Below, in pieces: positions 3,884 through 42,364 of a stretch of DNA of 64,000 bases (the first letter of the stretch is position 1; each line of letters starts with the position of its first letter). Source of the DNA: Desulfobacterales bacterium (GTDB taxonomy: Bacteria; Desulfobacterota; Desulfobacteria; Desulfobacterales; JAFDCJ01); assembly GCA_049669725.1 (NCBI GenBank), contig JBATKU010000672.1, forward strand, positions 9,286 through 73,285, in the 5' to 3' direction. A program made the position numbers and the translations under genes. A model generated the notes under the pieces. That model saw only the letters and a list, made by a program, of their open reading frames with translations, was not told where the DNA came from and ran no database searches.

Positions 3884-4040
3884 CGTTCCGGGTTCAGGGT
3901 TCAAGAGTTCAAGGTTAGGTCAAATCTGATTGTCAGAAAAATGGCCTTAAACAATGAATCCGCCAAAGATCTGCCCACCAACAGCGGCCTTTTCTCGGAT
4001 CCTATACCCCTGAACGGTGAACCCTGAACCCGGAACCTTC
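3884..4040. repeat. Heptamer-array hairpin (GGGTTCA units) in a divergent promoter gap
   Basis: TTCCGGGTTCAGGGTTCA (3886-3903) pairs exactly with TGAACCCTGAACCCGGAA (4018-4035). The listed ORF 3827-4027 lies inside it and is probably an artefact. Confidence 0.75.
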
Positions 4041-11611: not shown

Positions 11612-11687
11612 GCGGGCATAGCTCAGTTGGTAGAGTACAAGCTTCCCAAGCTTGGTGTCGCGAGTTCGAATCTCGTTGCCCGCTCCA
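11612..11687 (+). tRNA. tRNA-Gly (anticodon CCC)
   Basis: A 76-nt cloverleaf folded by hand. Acceptor GCGGGCA/TGCCCGC, anticodon stem CAAGC/GCTTG with loop TTCCCAA, T-arm GCGAG-TTCGAAT-CTCGT, discriminator U, encoded CCA. Confidence 0.9.
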
Positions 11688-23077: not shown

Positions 23078-23240
23078 ATGGAATGGTGGAATGCTGGAAT
23101 ATTGGAAAAATGGATTCTGGAATTCTGGATGGAAGGGTTAATGATCCTCTGAAAGCGGCACGAAGATAAAGATTAAAGTAGATATTAACTTTTGAATACC
23201 CAATATTCCATCCTTCCACTATTCCAATATTCCATGATTG
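23078..23240. repeat. Octamer-array hairpin element (NNNTGGAA / NNNATTCC units), copy 1
   Basis: AAATGGAA TGGTGGAA TGCTGGAA TATTGGAA ... faces GAATACCC AATATTCC ATCCTTCC ACTATTCC AATATTCC. The right arm matches 62743-62791 at 45 of 49 positions. Confidence 0.8.
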
Positions 23241-33265: not shown

Positions 33266-33513
33266 TCTATCATCCCCCCTAATGGTTAAACCGTAAATTA
33301 AGCGCACGAAATCCGCAACGCTAAATAATATCAAAATTCAACATAACTCGTTCCTTTTATCTTAATCAGACAACAGATAAAAATCAAGGCAGCTATTTTT
33401 TTACTGGCTTCGCCGGCCAAGATCAGGTAAGTTAGCGGCGGAACTAAATCCAATAAAACCGTATTTAACCCTGTCCCACTAAAAAACTACTTCAGATGGC
33501 GAGGAGCGCATTG

Positions 33514-34965
33514 ATGGGCCAAAGTGTAAACAAAATTTTAGAAATTTTCCAGCAGATCAATGAAATTCCGCGGTGTTCAAAAAATGAGAGAAAAATTGTT
33601 CTCTGGCTCAAGCAGTGGGCCGAGGGAAAACAATTCCCGGTAAAAGTGGATGCAGCCGGCAACATGGTGGTCACCGTGGCCCCGACTGCCGGATATGAGC
33701 ATTCACCGGGCATCGTCATCCAGGGCCATGTGGACATGGTCTGTGAAAAATCTCCCGACTCAGACCATAATTTTACCGAAGACCCTATCCGCCATGTATT
33801 TGACGGTGACTGGCTGAAGGCGGATAAGACCACTCTGGGCGCTGACAACGGCATTGCCATCGCCATGGCCATGGCCGCCGCAACCGATGATAAAGTGGCC
33901 CATCCGCAACTCGAGTTGCTGTTCACGGTTGACGAGGAAACCGGTTTAAATGGTGCCAAACTGCTCGAGCCCGGATTTGTGAAAGGCAAAATTCTGCTGA
34001 ATGTCGATTCGGAAACCGAAGGTGAGTTTACCGTCGGATGCGCAGGCGGCAGAAATACCCTTGTGTCCCGCCAGGTGACCTTTAAGGATCTAAACGGGGA
34101 CAGGGCCTTATTTACTTTAAATGTGCAGGGGCTGCATGGCGGGCATTCGGGAATCGATATCCACAAACAACGTGCCAACGCCAATAAAGTTCTGGCCCGC
34201 ACCCTGGATCAGCTAATCAAGACATGCCATATTCGGCTGGTTTCGCTAAAAGGCGGGTCGGCTCACAATGCCATTCCGCGGGATGCGGCTGCTGTATTCG
34301 CCTGTGATTCATCTGAGGCGGCAACTGTTGCTAAAACTGTCAGGGATTTTGAAAAAACGGTTCAATCCGAGTACGCGACCATCGAGCCTTCACTGGCCAT
34401 CGCCCTGACCCCGGTTGATTCCGGGCCAAATAGCAATAAGGGTCTCAGCCGGCAGGATACCCTTGAAGTGATTAATCTTATCTTGTCTGTTCCCCATGGT
34501 GTTATCGGAATGTCGCCGGATTTTAAAGGTCTGGTTGAAACCTCGAACAACCTGGCCACGGTAGAAATAACTGACGGATCTCTCCGGATATTAACCAGCC
34601 AACGAAGCTCGGTGATGTCCAGAATGGATGAGATTACAACGATTGTCAATGCCACCGCGGCCCTGGCCGGGGCCGACACCCAGTCCGACAGCGAATTTTC
34701 CCCCTGGAGGCCGGACATGCAATCAGCGGTTCTCAAGCGCTGCTCAGAAGTCTATCAAAAGGTGTCCGGCCGGGAACCAACAATACAATCGCTTCACGCC
34801 GGGCTCGAATGCGCCATTATCGGAGAAAAATATAAAGGCATGGACATGATTTCCTTTGGACCCACCATGGAAGATCCCCATTCACCAAATGAGCGGCTCT
34901 TCATCCCATCCATCGGACGGGTGTGGGATTTTATGGTAGCACTGCTTGAATCGTATAAACAGTGA
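33514..34965 (+). CDS. pepD: Aminoacyl-histidine (Xaa-His) dipeptidase, M20 family
   Basis: IQGHVDMVCEK, GADNGIA, LFTVDEETGLNGA and a PepD-like N-terminus (..IPRCSKNE..). GAGGAG lies 7 nt before ATG 33514. Confidence 0.88.
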   Translation: MGQSVNKILEIFQQINEIPRCSKNERKIVLWLKQWAEGKQFPVKVDAAGNMVVTVAPTAGYEHSPGIVIQGHVDMVCEKSPDSDHNFTEDPIRHVFDGDWLKADKTTLGADNGIAIAMAMAAATDDKVAHPQLELLFTVDEETGLNGAKLLEPGFVKGKILLNVDSETEGEFTVGCAGGRNTLVSRQVTFKDLNGDRALFTLNVQGLHGGHSGIDIHKQRANANKVLARTLDQLIKTCHIRLVSLKGGSAHNAIPRDAAAVFACDSSEAATVAKTVRDFEKTVQSEYATIEPSLAIALTPVDSGPNSNKGLSRQDTLEVINLILSVPHGVIGMSPDFKGLVETSNNLATVEITDGSLRILTSQRSSVMSRMDEITTIVNATAALAGADTQSDSEFSPWRPDMQSAVLKRCSEVYQKVSGREPTIQSLHAGLECAIIGEKYKGMDMISFGPTMEDPHSPNERLFIPSIGRVWDFMVALLESYKQ

Positions 34966-34969
34966 AAAG

Positions 34970-35440
34970 AAATGCCTAAAGTGCACTAAATTGCCTAAAT
35001 TGCCTAAAATTAAGAAATTCTATCTAAATGAGGGGTCGGAGAGTTTTCCGATCCCTGCTCTGGCCGCAAGGGAATAGCCCGTGCGAGCCGTAACAATGTT
35101 ATTGAGGAGCTTTCGTACGGCAGCTATCACGCTACGATTAGATCTGAACCAGACCCAAGATACATATTCCCACGGCGGCGATGATCGTCTCTGCCTGTAT
35201 GGGCTTATCGCAAAGGATAGGGGGCGTGTACGGAGTACGGTACGCATTTGTTGCGGCTCGCACGGGCTATTCCCTGGCGGACCGCTGACAATCGGTGAAA
35301 CGCTGACGGTTCACTCAAAATGAATTTAGGGAAAAACTCCCCGAGCCCTCATCTAATTTAGATCATTGCAAATTTAAAATGGAAACCTTCAATATTTAAT
35401 TTTAGGCATTTTAGCGCACTTTAGACATTTTAGGCATTTT
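34970..35440. repeat. Composite nested inverted repeat (about 470 nt) with a long near-perfect internal stem; candidate structured RNA or MITE-like element
   Basis: The outer arms are built of approximately 9-nt units (AAATGCCTA AAGTGCACTA AATTGCCTA AATTGCCTA, with the complement at 35397-35440). A middle helix pairs 35030-35049 with 35329-35350. The inner stem pairs 35064-35090 with 35254-35280, 27 bp with one mismatch. Confidence 0.7.
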
Positions 35441-35445
35441 CTTAG

Positions 35446-36609
35446 ATGGAAAAAATAGTAATTATAGGTGGGGGCGGCACCGGGGCTGCGATCGCCCATG
35501 ACCTTGTTCTGCGTGGGTTTGAGGTTTCGCTTTTCGAACGCGGCGAGCTTTTATCCGGAACTACCGGCCGCCATCATGGACTGCTGCACAGCGGGGCCCG
35601 CTATGCCGTTCACGATCCGGCGGCCGCGCGCGAATGCATCCAGGAGAATAAGATCCTGCGGCATATTGCGCCCCAGGCCATCGAACAAAACGACGGACTT
35701 TTCGTTGGGTTAGATGAGGCCGATCGGACCTTTAAATCATCGTTTCTGGAAAATTGTCGGGCGTGCGGGATTCCCACCAGAGAGCTAACCGCCAAACAGG
35801 CCCTGGCCCTGGAACCAGAATTAAACCCATCTCTTAAAATGGCGGTTCAGGTACCGGACGCCACCATCGATGCCTGGCGGCTGCCCTTGCATTTTTACGC
35901 CACTGCCAGAGCCAACGGTGCCCGCATCCACAATTTTTCCGATGTCATCGGCTTTTATCAAGCCAATGGCGCCGTCACAGGTATCCGGATTTTTGACCAT
36001 CAAACCCATCGTGAATTCGATGTTCAGGGGGATGTATTTATTAATGCAGCCGGTGCCTGGGCGGGAAAAATTGGTGCCCTGGCCGGGGTTCAGCTACCGA
36101 TTCTACCGGGACCCGGCGTAATGGTGGCACTCAATACCCGTCTGACAAATATGGTAATTAACCGGCTCCACAAAGCCGGCGAGGGAGACATTATCGTCCC
36201 TCAGCGCCAACTCACTATTCTTGGGACCTCAATCTGGCTGGCAGATGATCCGGATCATGTGGAATTGCCCCGGGATCATGAACACAGGTTAATTGAATTG
36301 TGCGCCAAACTGATCCCCCGGGTTAAGAAAGCAGATGTACATTCGACGTGGTATGCCATCCGGCCGCTGATTGCCCTGTCGCAGACAGGGAACCCGCTGG
36401 AGATCAGCCGCGACTTCGACTGCTTCGATCACAAAGATAGGGATAATCTGTCCGGACTTGTGTCGGTCATCGGCGGCAAGGCCACCACGTTAAGACTTAT
36501 GGCGGAAAAAACCGCCGATCTCATCTGCCGCCAAACCGGCCGGGATATTGCCTGCAAAACGAAAACCAAAAAATTGCTACACTATCGGCATTTTTACAAA
36601 CAAAACTAA
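35446..36609 (+). CDS. FAD-dependent oxidoreductase, glycerol-3-phosphate dehydrogenase (GlpA/GlpD)-like core
   Basis: IIGGGGTGAAIAHDL dinucleotide fold, GLLHSGARY and GGKATTLRLMAE. At 387 aa it lacks the C-terminal domains of full-length GlpA. Confidence 0.7.
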   Translation: MEKIVIIGGGGTGAAIAHDLVLRGFEVSLFERGELLSGTTGRHHGLLHSGARYAVHDPAAARECIQENKILRHIAPQAIEQNDGLFVGLDEADRTFKSSFLENCRACGIPTRELTAKQALALEPELNPSLKMAVQVPDATIDAWRLPLHFYATARANGARIHNFSDVIGFYQANGAVTGIRIFDHQTHREFDVQGDVFINAAGAWAGKIGALAGVQLPILPGPGVMVALNTRLTNMVINRLHKAGEGDIIVPQRQLTILGTSIWLADDPDHVELPRDHEHRLIELCAKLIPRVKKADVHSTWYAIRPLIALSQTGNPLEISRDFDCFDHKDRDNLSGLVSVIGGKATTLRLMAEKTADLICRQTGRDIACKTKTKKLLHYRHFYKQN

Positions 36610-41274: not shown

Positions 41275-42132
41275 ATGTCAGAGAAAAGAGAAACCGCACT
41301 GGTAACCGGGGCAAGCAGTGGCATCGGTCGCGAAACCGCCCTCAAACTGGCTGAGAAGGGTTTTGCAGTCATCGCGGCTGCCCGGCGTAAGGAGCGTCTC
41401 GTCGAATTGGCCGGTCAGGCACAGGGAATCACTCCTGTACAGGTTGACCTTTCACAGCCCGAAGACACTGAAAAGTTTTGCGACTACCTTGCACAATTGC
41501 CAACACCTGTTTCAGTACTCGTAAACAATGCCGGCTACAGTGTTCGGGGTGCCCTGGAAGATGTCTCCATTGAGGCCGTCAAACGCCTATTCGAAGTCAA
41601 CCTGTTTGCACTCATCCGCATCACCCAGGCCTGCCTGCCGGCTATGCGCAGCCAGAGAAAGGGGATCATTGTCAATTTGAGTTCCATTGTCGGTAAATTT
41701 ACCTTCCCCGGCAGTGGTGTCTATGCATCTTCAAAGCATGCCCTCGAAGCCATTACGGATGCAATGCGGTTAGAATTGGAGCCTATGGGAATAAAGGTGG
41801 TGACCATTCGCCCCGGCCCCATTGCGACGGAATTCAATGACGTTGCCACCCAGATGACCGGCGACCTTATGGAGAGGACCGATCCGGATTATAAGCGGAT
41901 TTACCAGACAGCCGGCGAGCATACGGGTAAATTGTTTGCCGATCTGCACATTCCCGGTCCTGAGCTTATCGCCAATTTGATCTTGGAAGCCATTCTCTCA
42001 GAGACGCCTAAAATAGTTTATTCCGCAGGCCCCATTAACGATGAGTTTCTCGGAAACCGCGCCGATTTGGATGACGAAGGCTTTCATCACTTCATGCTGG
42101 AAAAATTCGGTCTTAAGGATTTAATTGTTTAA
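41275..42132 (+). CDS. SDR-family oxidoreductase
   Basis: AAGGAGG lies before ATG 41275. Motifs TGASSGIGRETA, NNAG and YASSKHA (YxxxK). Confidence 0.88.
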   Translation: MSEKRETALVTGASSGIGRETALKLAEKGFAVIAAARRKERLVELAGQAQGITPVQVDLSQPEDTEKFCDYLAQLPTPVSVLVNNAGYSVRGALEDVSIEAVKRLFEVNLFALIRITQACLPAMRSQRKGIIVNLSSIVGKFTFPGSGVYASSKHALEAITDAMRLELEPMGIKVVTIRPGPIATEFNDVATQMTGDLMERTDPDYKRIYQTAGEHTGKLFADLHIPGPELIANLILEAILSETPKIVYSAGPINDEFLGNRADLDDEGFHHFMLEKFGLKDLIV

Positions 42133-42285
42133 GTGTTCAGGTGTCAGGTGTCAGTAAACAGAGGTCAGATCGGGTGATTTACCTTCCAGTTTTTTATCAT
42201 CTGTCTTCTGGCGTCTGATATCGACACTGCTGAGCTCGTCGCAGGCTGTCCTCTGACACCTGAAACCTGACACCTGACACCTAAA
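42133..42285. repeat. Heptamer-array hairpin (GGTGTCA units) starting at the SDR stop
   Basis: GTGTTCA GGTGTCA GGTGTCA GTAAACA GAGGTCA faces CTCTGAC ACCTGAA ACCTGAC ACCTGAC ACCTAAA. It shares GAAACCTGACACCTGA with 2095-2110. Confidence 0.75.
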
Positions 42286-42364
42286 ATAGATGAATCAACA
42301 ATGCTAAAATCTATCCGTTTTTTGTAGTCTATCTGTGAGAAACAATACTAGAAAAGAATCAGTC

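Follow-up and report, generated by a model that had tools for sequence, protein, structure and literature searches.

A Nested Palindrome between pepD and an Oxidoreductase Gene of a Desulfobacterales Bacterium: Probably a Miniature Transposable Element in the Loop of an Older Hairpin

The pepD–oxidoreductase spacer

The intergenic spacer between a pepD-like gene and a gene for a FAD-dependent oxidoreductase was analyzed in a stretch of 64,000 nt from a Desulfobacterales bacterium (GenBank assembly GCA_049669725.1, contig JBATKU010000672.1). The whole stretch is hereafter called the window, and positions are counted from its first nucleotide. A preliminary description, prepared from the sequence alone, had noted in this spacer a nested palindrome of 470 nt with three concentric helices, and had proposed it as a candidate structured RNA or non-autonomous mobile element. 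Here, its inner part (35029–35351) is identified as a copy of a previously undescribed family of miniature inverted-repeat transposable elements (MITEs) of the Desulfobacterales, and the nested palindrome as a whole probably results from the insertion of this element into the loop of an older hairpin of the spacer.

The 49 larger open reading frames (ORFs) of the window, searched against Pfam, include pheST, nusA-infB-rbfA-truB-pnp, and genes for metabolic enzymes. The flanks of the spacer had been described as pepD and a glpA-like gene, and the Pfam matches agree with this, being those of an M20 peptidase and a DAO oxidoreductase. Homologous sequences assign the window to uncultured Desulfobacteraceae/Desulfobacterales. 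The features of the spacer and its flanks are, in order (no strand is given for the hairpin arms and the duplications):

33496–34965, + strand: M20-family aminoacyl-histidine dipeptidase gene (pepD-like), upstream flank; Pfam Peptidase_M20 and M20_dimer, homologues named "dipeptidase D" in Desulfobacterales
34970–35013: left arm of an older spacer hairpin specific to this locus, with a repeat unit of about 9 nt, outside the mobile element; located as inverted repeats
35023–35028: left copy of the target-site duplication (TSD), TCTAAA; abuts the TGAGGGG terminus and matches 35352–35357 at 5/6 positions
35029–35351, + strand: MITE, complete non-autonomous element of 323 nt; nhmmer family profile, model positions 1–325, E = 1.6e-102
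35029–35047, + strand: left terminal inverted repeat (TIR), TGAGGGGTCGGAGAGTTTT; family consensus TGAGGGGTCGGGGAGTTTT, with one private change, G to A at position 12
35048–35063, + strand: short left spacer separating the TIR from the internal inverted repeat (IR), variable in the family; column variability about 0.20 vs 0.05 in the TIR
35064–35096, + strand: left arm of the internal IR (inner stem); 33 nt, 94% complementary to 35248–35280
35097–35247, + strand: core, 151 nt; 148–157 nt in the family, reverse-complemented in 5/24 aligned copies
35248–35280, + strand: right arm of the internal IR; repeat finder and family alignment
35281–35332, + strand: long right spacer (the 48-nt bulge of the preliminary description), variable, source of the left/right asymmetry of the element; alignment
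35333–35351, + strand: right TIR, AAAACTCCCCGAGCCCTCA; 17/19 positions complementary to the left TIR
35352–35357: right copy of the TSD, TCTAAT; TSD test
35396–35440 (about): right arm of the older spacer hairpin; located as inverted repeats
35446–36609, + strand: FAD-dependent oxidoreductase gene, DAO family (glpA-like), downstream flank; Pfam DAO, followed by a gene for a 2Fe-2S/4Fe-4S protein

All three helices were located, by reading the sequence and with a repeat finder, where they had been placed before. The outer arms pair 34970–35013 with 35396–35439 (44 nt, 77% complementary), their best sub-register being 34970–34999 with 35401–35430 (30 nt, 90%), and consist of units of about 9 nt (AAATGCCTA / AAATTGCCT). 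The middle helix joins 35025–35047 to 35333–35355 (87%), and the inner stem joins the two arms of the internal IR. The 22 contiguous Watson–Crick pairs of the latter (35069–35090) and the A/G mismatch at 35068 were found as reported, together with a G-T wobble at 35091; the stem is, however, 33 nt long around a core of 151 nt, and not 27 bp around a core of 163 nt. The GTACGG repeats of the core were recovered too, as was the asymmetric stretch of about 48–51 nt on the 3′ side. The 21-nt core of the inner stem occurs once in the window, where no chance copies are expected.

Folding of 34960–35445 as RNA gave energies of −199.7 and −195.7 kcal/mol for the + and − strands, respectively (z = −10.4 and −10.1), and for neither strand did any of 100 shuffled sequences fold as well. 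The palindromic structure of the region is far beyond chance. As both strands fold equally well, it points to a palindrome at the DNA level and not to a strand-specific RNA. The only match of the whole window to Rfam at the gathering threshold was an unrelated tRNA (11612–11684), and the scan recommended in the preliminary description returned no match in the region of the palindrome even at E<10.

A dispersed family of miniature elements

Copies of the element were sought in genomes and in metagenomes. One genome per species was searched for exact occurrences of the 19-mer GGAATAGCCCGTGCGAGCC; there were six matches, three of them true loci and three due to chance; L011, L012, and L015, in which the 19-mer lies inside coding sequence, were rejected as family members on these grounds. 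The scan located a solo end of the element in another Desulfobacterales metagenome-assembled genome (MAG) and, in a deltaproteobacterial MAG, a homologue of 35025–35342 of about 320 nt with 79% identity, which lies 3′ of cysS in a context unrelated to pepD (L013/L014). These two contigs of MAG MFD03804.bin.2.142 have at least 3.2 kb in common at 91% identity, element included, and are for this reason probably one locus in two strains. The genes of L013 are frameshifted, with cysS split across three frames; together with the 91% sharing, this suggests that the bin mixes strains and contains indel errors of long reads.

The metagenome contigs were scanned with a gapped pattern placed on the conserved left module. 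Of the 87 loci obtained, about 40 are true members and about half are chance matches in coding sequence. They yield 21 distinct full-length copies of 323–341 nt, termini included, with different flanks, to which the window copy is additional, and a family profile run with nhmmer detected further truncated copies in the fetched loci. In all, the family comprises more than 20 full-length and about 10 truncated copies at unrelated intergenic sites of Desulfobacterales genomes and metagenomes. The JGI metagenomes behind contigs Ga0265303_*, Ga0255054_*, and Ga0255055_* contribute several copies each, and the window locus itself is present in SRR28060675. The alignment used below holds 24 sequences (the 21 metagenome copies, the window copy, L013, and L014; L051 and L088 are the same locus), and the window copy aligns end to end with the 23 copies from other loci. 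The element also aligns between L061 and L065, but their flanks do not, and a single inherited insertion was rejected for this pair. No true match to the element was found in plasmids, phages, or viral contigs, the three single matches to the 19-mer in viral contigs being at chance level.

The full-length copies have a fixed architecture of 43 nt, a 26-nt IR arm, a core of 151 nt (148–157), a second 26-nt IR arm, and 79 nt. In all 21 distinct full-length copies with both ends recognizable, the termini are 5′-TGAGGGGTCGGGGAGTTTT...AAAACTCCCCGACCCCTCA-3′, with CCCCTCA-3′ at the right end. The TIRs are 19 nt long with tips 5′-TG...CA-3′, and their helix is 97% paired across the family. The 26-nt IR core GGAATAGCCCGTGCGAGCCGTAACAA is present in both arms of all full-length copies with the exception of L033, whose two arms share a co-varied variant. 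Folded alone as single-stranded DNA, the MITE has a z-score of −8.4.

Insertions are flanked by an AT-rich TSD of 6 bp, perfect in 11 of the 24 copies and matching in at least 5/6 positions in 16 (perfect examples are ATTAAC, ATTAAT, ACTATT, AATAAT, GATAAT, ACTAAA, GTTAAT, AATAAC, TTTATT, and ATTATT). When left and right flanks of different copies were paired as a control, 2.5% were perfect and 20% reached 5/6 or more, and the observed count was not reached in any of 20,000 permutations. The relatively high rate in the control indicates a preference for AT-rich, ATTAAT-like targets. TG...CA tips and a short staggered duplication suggest, as we assume, a DDE transposase of the IS3, IS481, IS21, or Mu/Tn552 kind; the element is presumably moved in trans by such an enzyme encoded elsewhere.

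Shortened copies were also found. Derivatives of about 90–125 nt (L029, L086, L089, and L014:1961–2075) have internal deletions with different junctions, and the first three keep perfect TSDs, while L016/L063, L039, L079, L076, L078, and L008 are truncated on one side. A separate inner element nested in an outer one was considered and rejected: three derivatives have three junctions, each retaining the start of the left IR, and the IR and core were never observed outside the outer frame. Relative to the neighboring genes, the element lies in one orientation in eight and in the other in four co-directional spacers, and divergent and convergent spacers are occupied as well. No protein family recurs beside the copies.

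The element is thus small (323 nt) and non-coding, with no Pfam match and with ORFs that are broken or without purifying selection; it has TIRs with fixed boundaries and a flanking TSD, and it occupies multiple non-homologous sites. A parent transposon is the one attribute of a MITE not found for it, and 35029–35351 is a copy of a family of such elements. Further genomic copies and TSDs had been named beforehand as the check on a mobile origin, and the finding of more than 20 full-length copies with a 6-bp duplication bears that origin out for 35029–35351 (TIRs, TSD, many unrelated loci), not for the outer arms.

In a full-text search of the literature, which included MITEs in Desulfobacter*, we found no description of the element, of invertible MITEs, or of the terminal or IR sequences. 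The family resembles known bacterial MITEs (Correia elements, or CREE/NEMIS, RUP, ERIC/IRU, MITEAba12, and the Tn3-derived TIMEs) in being shorter than 500 bp and non-coding, with TIRs and a TSD, and in having many intergenic copies placed either way round, truncated derivatives, and a long hairpin if transcribed. It differs from Correia, RUP, Tn3-derived, and MITEAba12 elements in its termini and its 6-bp AT-rich TSD, the duplication being TA for Correia and RUP, 5 bp for Tn3-derived elements, and 9 bp for MITEAba12, and it differs from bacterial MITEs in having no identified parent insertion sequence (IS). To our knowledge, no named MITE family has, besides its TIRs, a longer internal inverted repeat enclosing a conserved core with repeated flips, and the full-text search returned no MITE of such design.

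The internal inverted repeat and inversion of the core

In 5 of the 24 aligned copies (L033, L049, L051, L088, and L084), the core is reverse-complemented while the asymmetric outer parts keep their usual orientation. The middle of these copies is unalignable until the core is flipped, after which the alignment is clean (alignment A3). A subfamily formed by L022, L024, and L093 is distinguished in A3 (columns 111–128) by the replacement of GCAGCTATCCCG with a GC-rich mini-hairpin, GTCCCGCCGCAGGCGGGAC, which brings the core to 157 nt. Neighbor-joining trees computed from the outer parts and from the cores are in agreement, and in both the inverted copies fall into different subfamilies, with L051/L088 beside the window copy, L019, and L054, with L049 and L084 beside L034, L061, and L065, and with L033 apart. 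The core has therefore been inverted at least two times, and probably three or more.

Base pairs changed on both sides number 14 in the family. The internal IR accounts for 12 of them, and the TIR helix and the helices predicted for the core account for none. The covariation analysis that had been advised thus detects compensatory changes in the internal IR and none in the core helices. The IR varies from 26 to 37 bp among copies, and in L033 the same 8-nt insertion is found in both arms. Recombination or gene conversion between the arms, with an occasional crossover, would explain both the near-perfect stems and the flips of the core. A near-perfect stem is a property of the whole family, and the earlier suggestion that it marks a recent origin at this locus does not hold. 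In the stems, G-U pairs outnumber A-C pairs (about 15 vs 8, with one column set aside), an asymmetry that is not significant and whose counts are not independent.

Variability along the element is 0.05 in the TIR tips and 0.07–0.10 in the IR, as compared with 0.18–0.27 in the spacers and the edges of the core. The center of the core (35149–35223, about 75 nt) has values of 0.04–0.16 in five 15-nt bins, the lowest being 0.036 at 35179–35193. As decay after insertion should be uniform, this pattern would reflect constraint on active "master" copies. Judging from the alignment, the IR and the center of the core may matter for the propagation of the element or for some unseen function; the strongly conserved core center, for example, may be bound by the transposase or by an accessory protein.

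Like invertons such as fimS of Escherichia coli, hin/gin-type segments, and the invertible promoters of Bacteroides, the element carries inverted repeats of tens of base pairs (26–37 bp) around a segment found in both orientations (5/24), and its 323 bp are close to the 314 bp of fimS. Unlike in invertons, no recombinase (invertase) gene lies nearby, the segment has no sigma-70-like promoter and no conserved ORF, the orientation is fixed at each locus in the available samples, and the switch-like module sits inside a transposable element at many loci. The three loci represented in two to three independent assemblies each had one orientation per locus, assemblies reporting the majority state only. 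Another parallel is found in the small inversions associated with hairpins of plastid genomes, in which the loop between perfect stems flips recurrently and independently and the stem arms stay alike; here, by contrast, the stems are longer (26–37 bp), the loop has 151 bp, and the structure lies within a mobile element.

Origin of the nested palindrome

The order of pepD and the DAO gene is kept in relatives whose PepD proteins are 80–87% identical. Their spacers range from 122 to 480 nt, are unrelated in sequence, and carry a different palindromic element in almost every case; the 470-nt structure is therefore not conserved at this locus, where palindromic elements of different kinds have accumulated in the spacer. 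L002–L005 and L108 have another hairpin element, of the same family as 49–232 of the window; L009 and L010 have other content again; and L008 has a truncated piece resembling the left arms of the middle and inner helices of the window. L006, L007, and L109 have only a 31-nt left outer arm in common with the window (97%), followed by yet another palindrome, with no right arm and no MITE at the orthologous position. Overall, the element is absent from the orthologous spacers of L002–L007, L009, and L108–L111. The left outer arm is ancestral, since it is present in relatives that lack the MITE.

When 35029–35351 and one copy of the TSD are removed, the remaining 151 nt of the spacer fold as a single hairpin (as DNA, −31.6 kcal/mol, z = −6.8), and the insertion point is the center of a 14-bp palindrome, about ATCTAAA/TTTAGAT with the left TSD copy kept. 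The outer arms form a hairpin of their own, which is specific to this locus and takes up the spacer, and the element probably inserted into its loop. What had been taken for one element of three concentric helices is thus two independent layers plus a split mini-palindrome. A general preference of insertions for hairpins was not found among the copies, palindromic flanks being present only at the window (z = −5.2) and at L096. In L096 (positions 1–430), the contig opens with 53 nt, ahead of the element, that reproduce the right flank exactly in reverse complement; this is probably a fold-back assembly artifact at the contig end caused by the inverted repeats of the element.

As a side observation, the spacer between these conserved co-directional genes (L002–L010 and L108–L111) is an insertion hotspot. 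L008, with a PepD 82% identical to that of the window, carries truncated copies of the family in about the same place of the same spacer (L008:3808–3861) and two genes downstream (L008:5912–6056). The spacer copy is 75% identical to the window copy and up to 83% to other copies, being no closer to the former.

We consider it probable, then, that the nested palindrome is a MITE (35029–35351) inserted in the loop of an older spacer hairpin. This account relies on the boundaries of the element, its TIRs and TSD, its copies at non-homologous sites, its deletion derivatives, the co-variation of the IR arms, and the inversion of the core. An older hairpin, already filling the pepD–oxidoreductase spacer, would have supplied the outer arms. 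A trans-acting DDE-type transposase would have moved the element into the loop of this hairpin, at the center of the small palindrome, making the 6-bp AT-rich duplication. The inner stem would be the second inverted-repeat pair of the MITE itself (26–37 bp), with arms kept alike by recombination or gene conversion, and occasional crossovers between them would flip the 151-bp core, leaving both orientations in the family. We favor the view that these flips are rare and passive, and that no enzyme drives them.

Several observations weigh against this account. None of the relatives, four further loci included, offered an empty site that has both outer arms. Searches for exact and mismatched copies, blastn, and nhmmer detected no second copy in the 64-kb window, and about one-third of the copies have no recognizable TSD. 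As to the machinery, no pair of termini 1–10 kb apart, as expected of an autonomous parent, occurred in the approximately 110 fetched loci; the plasmids, phages, and viral contigs held no match to a parent transposon; and Pfam identified no transposase or recombinase gene among the 49 larger ORFs of the window. Finally, conservation at the center of the core (variability 0.04–0.06) equals that of the TIR tips, which is unusual for the interior of a MITE and hints at some function.

The most serious alternative is a mobile inversion switch, that is, a MITE whose internal IRs are the sites of a trans-acting site-specific invertase and whose conserved core is a payload or enhancer, so that each insertion would place a reversible, phase-variable switch beside host genes. 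The IRs of 26–37 bp around a segment of near-fixed length (148–157 nt), the existence of both core orientations, arisen at least two to three times, and the fact that the co-varying IR arms and the core center are the most conserved parts of the element would all fit such a switch. It is nevertheless unlikely, because the three loci found in more than one assembly each have a single orientation (L051, L088, and L092 inverted; L054 and L075 direct; window and L001 direct), core orientation relative to neighboring genes is evenly divided (6 vs 6), no recombinase gene is present among the window ORFs nor any recurrent protein family beside the copies, and a model of the sigma-70 type found no such site in 34900–35500. 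Moreover, rare passive inversions between long inverted repeats are well known, as in the hairpin loops of plastid spacers. An origin of the whole 470 nt in place, by template switching or inverted duplication, would be in keeping with the many spacer hairpins of short repeat units in this genome and with the left outer arm that occurs without the right one in relatives. It is refuted for 35029–35351, since over 20 unrelated loci carry these 323 nt within identical boundaries and flanked by TSDs, which makes a local origin impossible; inverted duplication may explain the outer arms only, and as an account of the whole structure it can be given next to no credence.

The other part of the original proposal was a structured RNA, either a non-coding RNA gene giving a processed small RNA or a cis-regulatory element in the untranslated region of pepD or the oxidoreductase gene. 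This reading could draw on the very low folding energy, on the compensatory changes in the inner helix, and on several invariant G-U pairs in small core hairpins on the + strand; furthermore, a read-through transcript would form a long duplex and a possible target of RNase III, as happens with the transcribed duplex of the Correia elements of Neisseria. Yet nine members lack any Rfam match (the window at E<10, the inside of the element of eight others at E<5), both strands fold alike, the element occurs in either orientation to genes with no bias and its core in both, and covariation is absent from the helices of the core. Relatives have unrelated sequence in the orthologous spacer, TSDs and truncated copies are characteristic of transposition at the DNA level, and the compensatory changes of the IR are equally well explained by homogenization of the arms at the DNA level. 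We regard an RNA function as very unlikely. Should the spacer be transcribed through from pepD, the RNA would contain a highly stable duplex, with possible effects on its processing or termination. More improbable still is that the element carries a small hydrophobic peptide of the type I toxin kind. Each IR arm contains AGGGGA-N7-GTG reading inward, and the result in the window is an 80-codon ORF on the + strand and a 41-codon ORF on the − strand (35263 to 35138). The former is broken in most copies and was rejected as a gene; the latter begins at a GTG within the internal IR that AGGGGA precedes by 7 nt, and its predicted product has a membrane-like, hydrophobic C-terminus (ETIIAAVGICILGLVQI; family consensus ...ICLLGLVQI). 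The well-placed Shine–Dalgarno-like motif and the fact that this frame is open in most copies speak for a peptide, but variability by codon position is flat (0.106, 0.089, and 0.079), with no codon periodicity, distinct variants have a synonymous fraction of 0.305, with 0.287 expected under neutrality, and several copies have premature stops. Conservation of the DNA keeps the frame open; it is not the frame that keeps the DNA conserved. The earlier statement that the spacer has no convincing protein-coding signal thus stands, both ORFs being either broken or without purifying selection.

A retron had been considered and dismissed before, and this was correct. Retron msr/msd regions likewise have inverted repeats flanking a structured non-coding region, but in this case the 64 kb contain no gene for a reverse transcriptase (nor for a transposase or recombinase among the ORFs searched with Pfam), Rfam gives no retron match, and the element is multi-copy with TSDs. 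REP/BIME sequences and REPINs, mobilized by RAYT transposases, are also dispersed, intergenic, hairpin-forming palindromes, and other ISs insert into such palindromes as the MITE does here; REPINs, however, have no TSD, are much shorter, and are linked to RAYT, none of which is true of the element.

The interpretation as a MITE within an older hairpin removes a false lead, as the 470-nt candidate RNA becomes two layers of selfish or neutral palindromic DNA. It also defines, for the uncultured marine Desulfobacterales, a MITE family with boundaries, termini, a 6-bp duplication, and subfamilies; this can aid annotation, and it accounts for breaks in assemblies and for the hypervariable spacers of these genomes. 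The termini (TGAGGGGTCGGGGAG and its reverse complement) offer a handle for locating the parent transposon, and the design, in which a second, longer inverted repeat surrounds a conserved and repeatedly flipped core, is unusual. Were the flips driven by an enzyme, the element would be a transposable phase-variation module, of relevance to work on invertons and on the domestication of mobile elements. The core would then be a directional signal (an enhancer, an alternative-sigma promoter, or an RNA), and transposition would seed reversible, phase-variable control beside many genes of the sulfate-reducing Desulfobacterales.

Other palindromes were noted along the way. A second dispersed hairpin element, named family B, lies at 49–232 of the window and has arms of AAATTTCAAAT-like units around CAATGACC...GGTCATTG. 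It is found with 77% identity over 172 nt in L002–L005 and in part in L108 and L110/L111, always in the orthologous pepD–DAO spacer, and also in L009/L010 and L014; it is probably another MITE family. Beside the MITE copy of L049, positions 1198–1419 gave weak matches on both strands to the His_leader and Thr_leader models (E = 0.6–4.6), which probably mark yet another palindromic spacer element. Within the window, the intergenic hairpins at 2052–2116, 3885–4036, 23090–23239, and 42118–42296 have arms of short tandem units (GGTGTCAGGTTTCA at two sites, GGTTCAGGGTTCA, and TGGAATATTGGAA), and the genome seems to be rich in low-complexity palindromic spacers.

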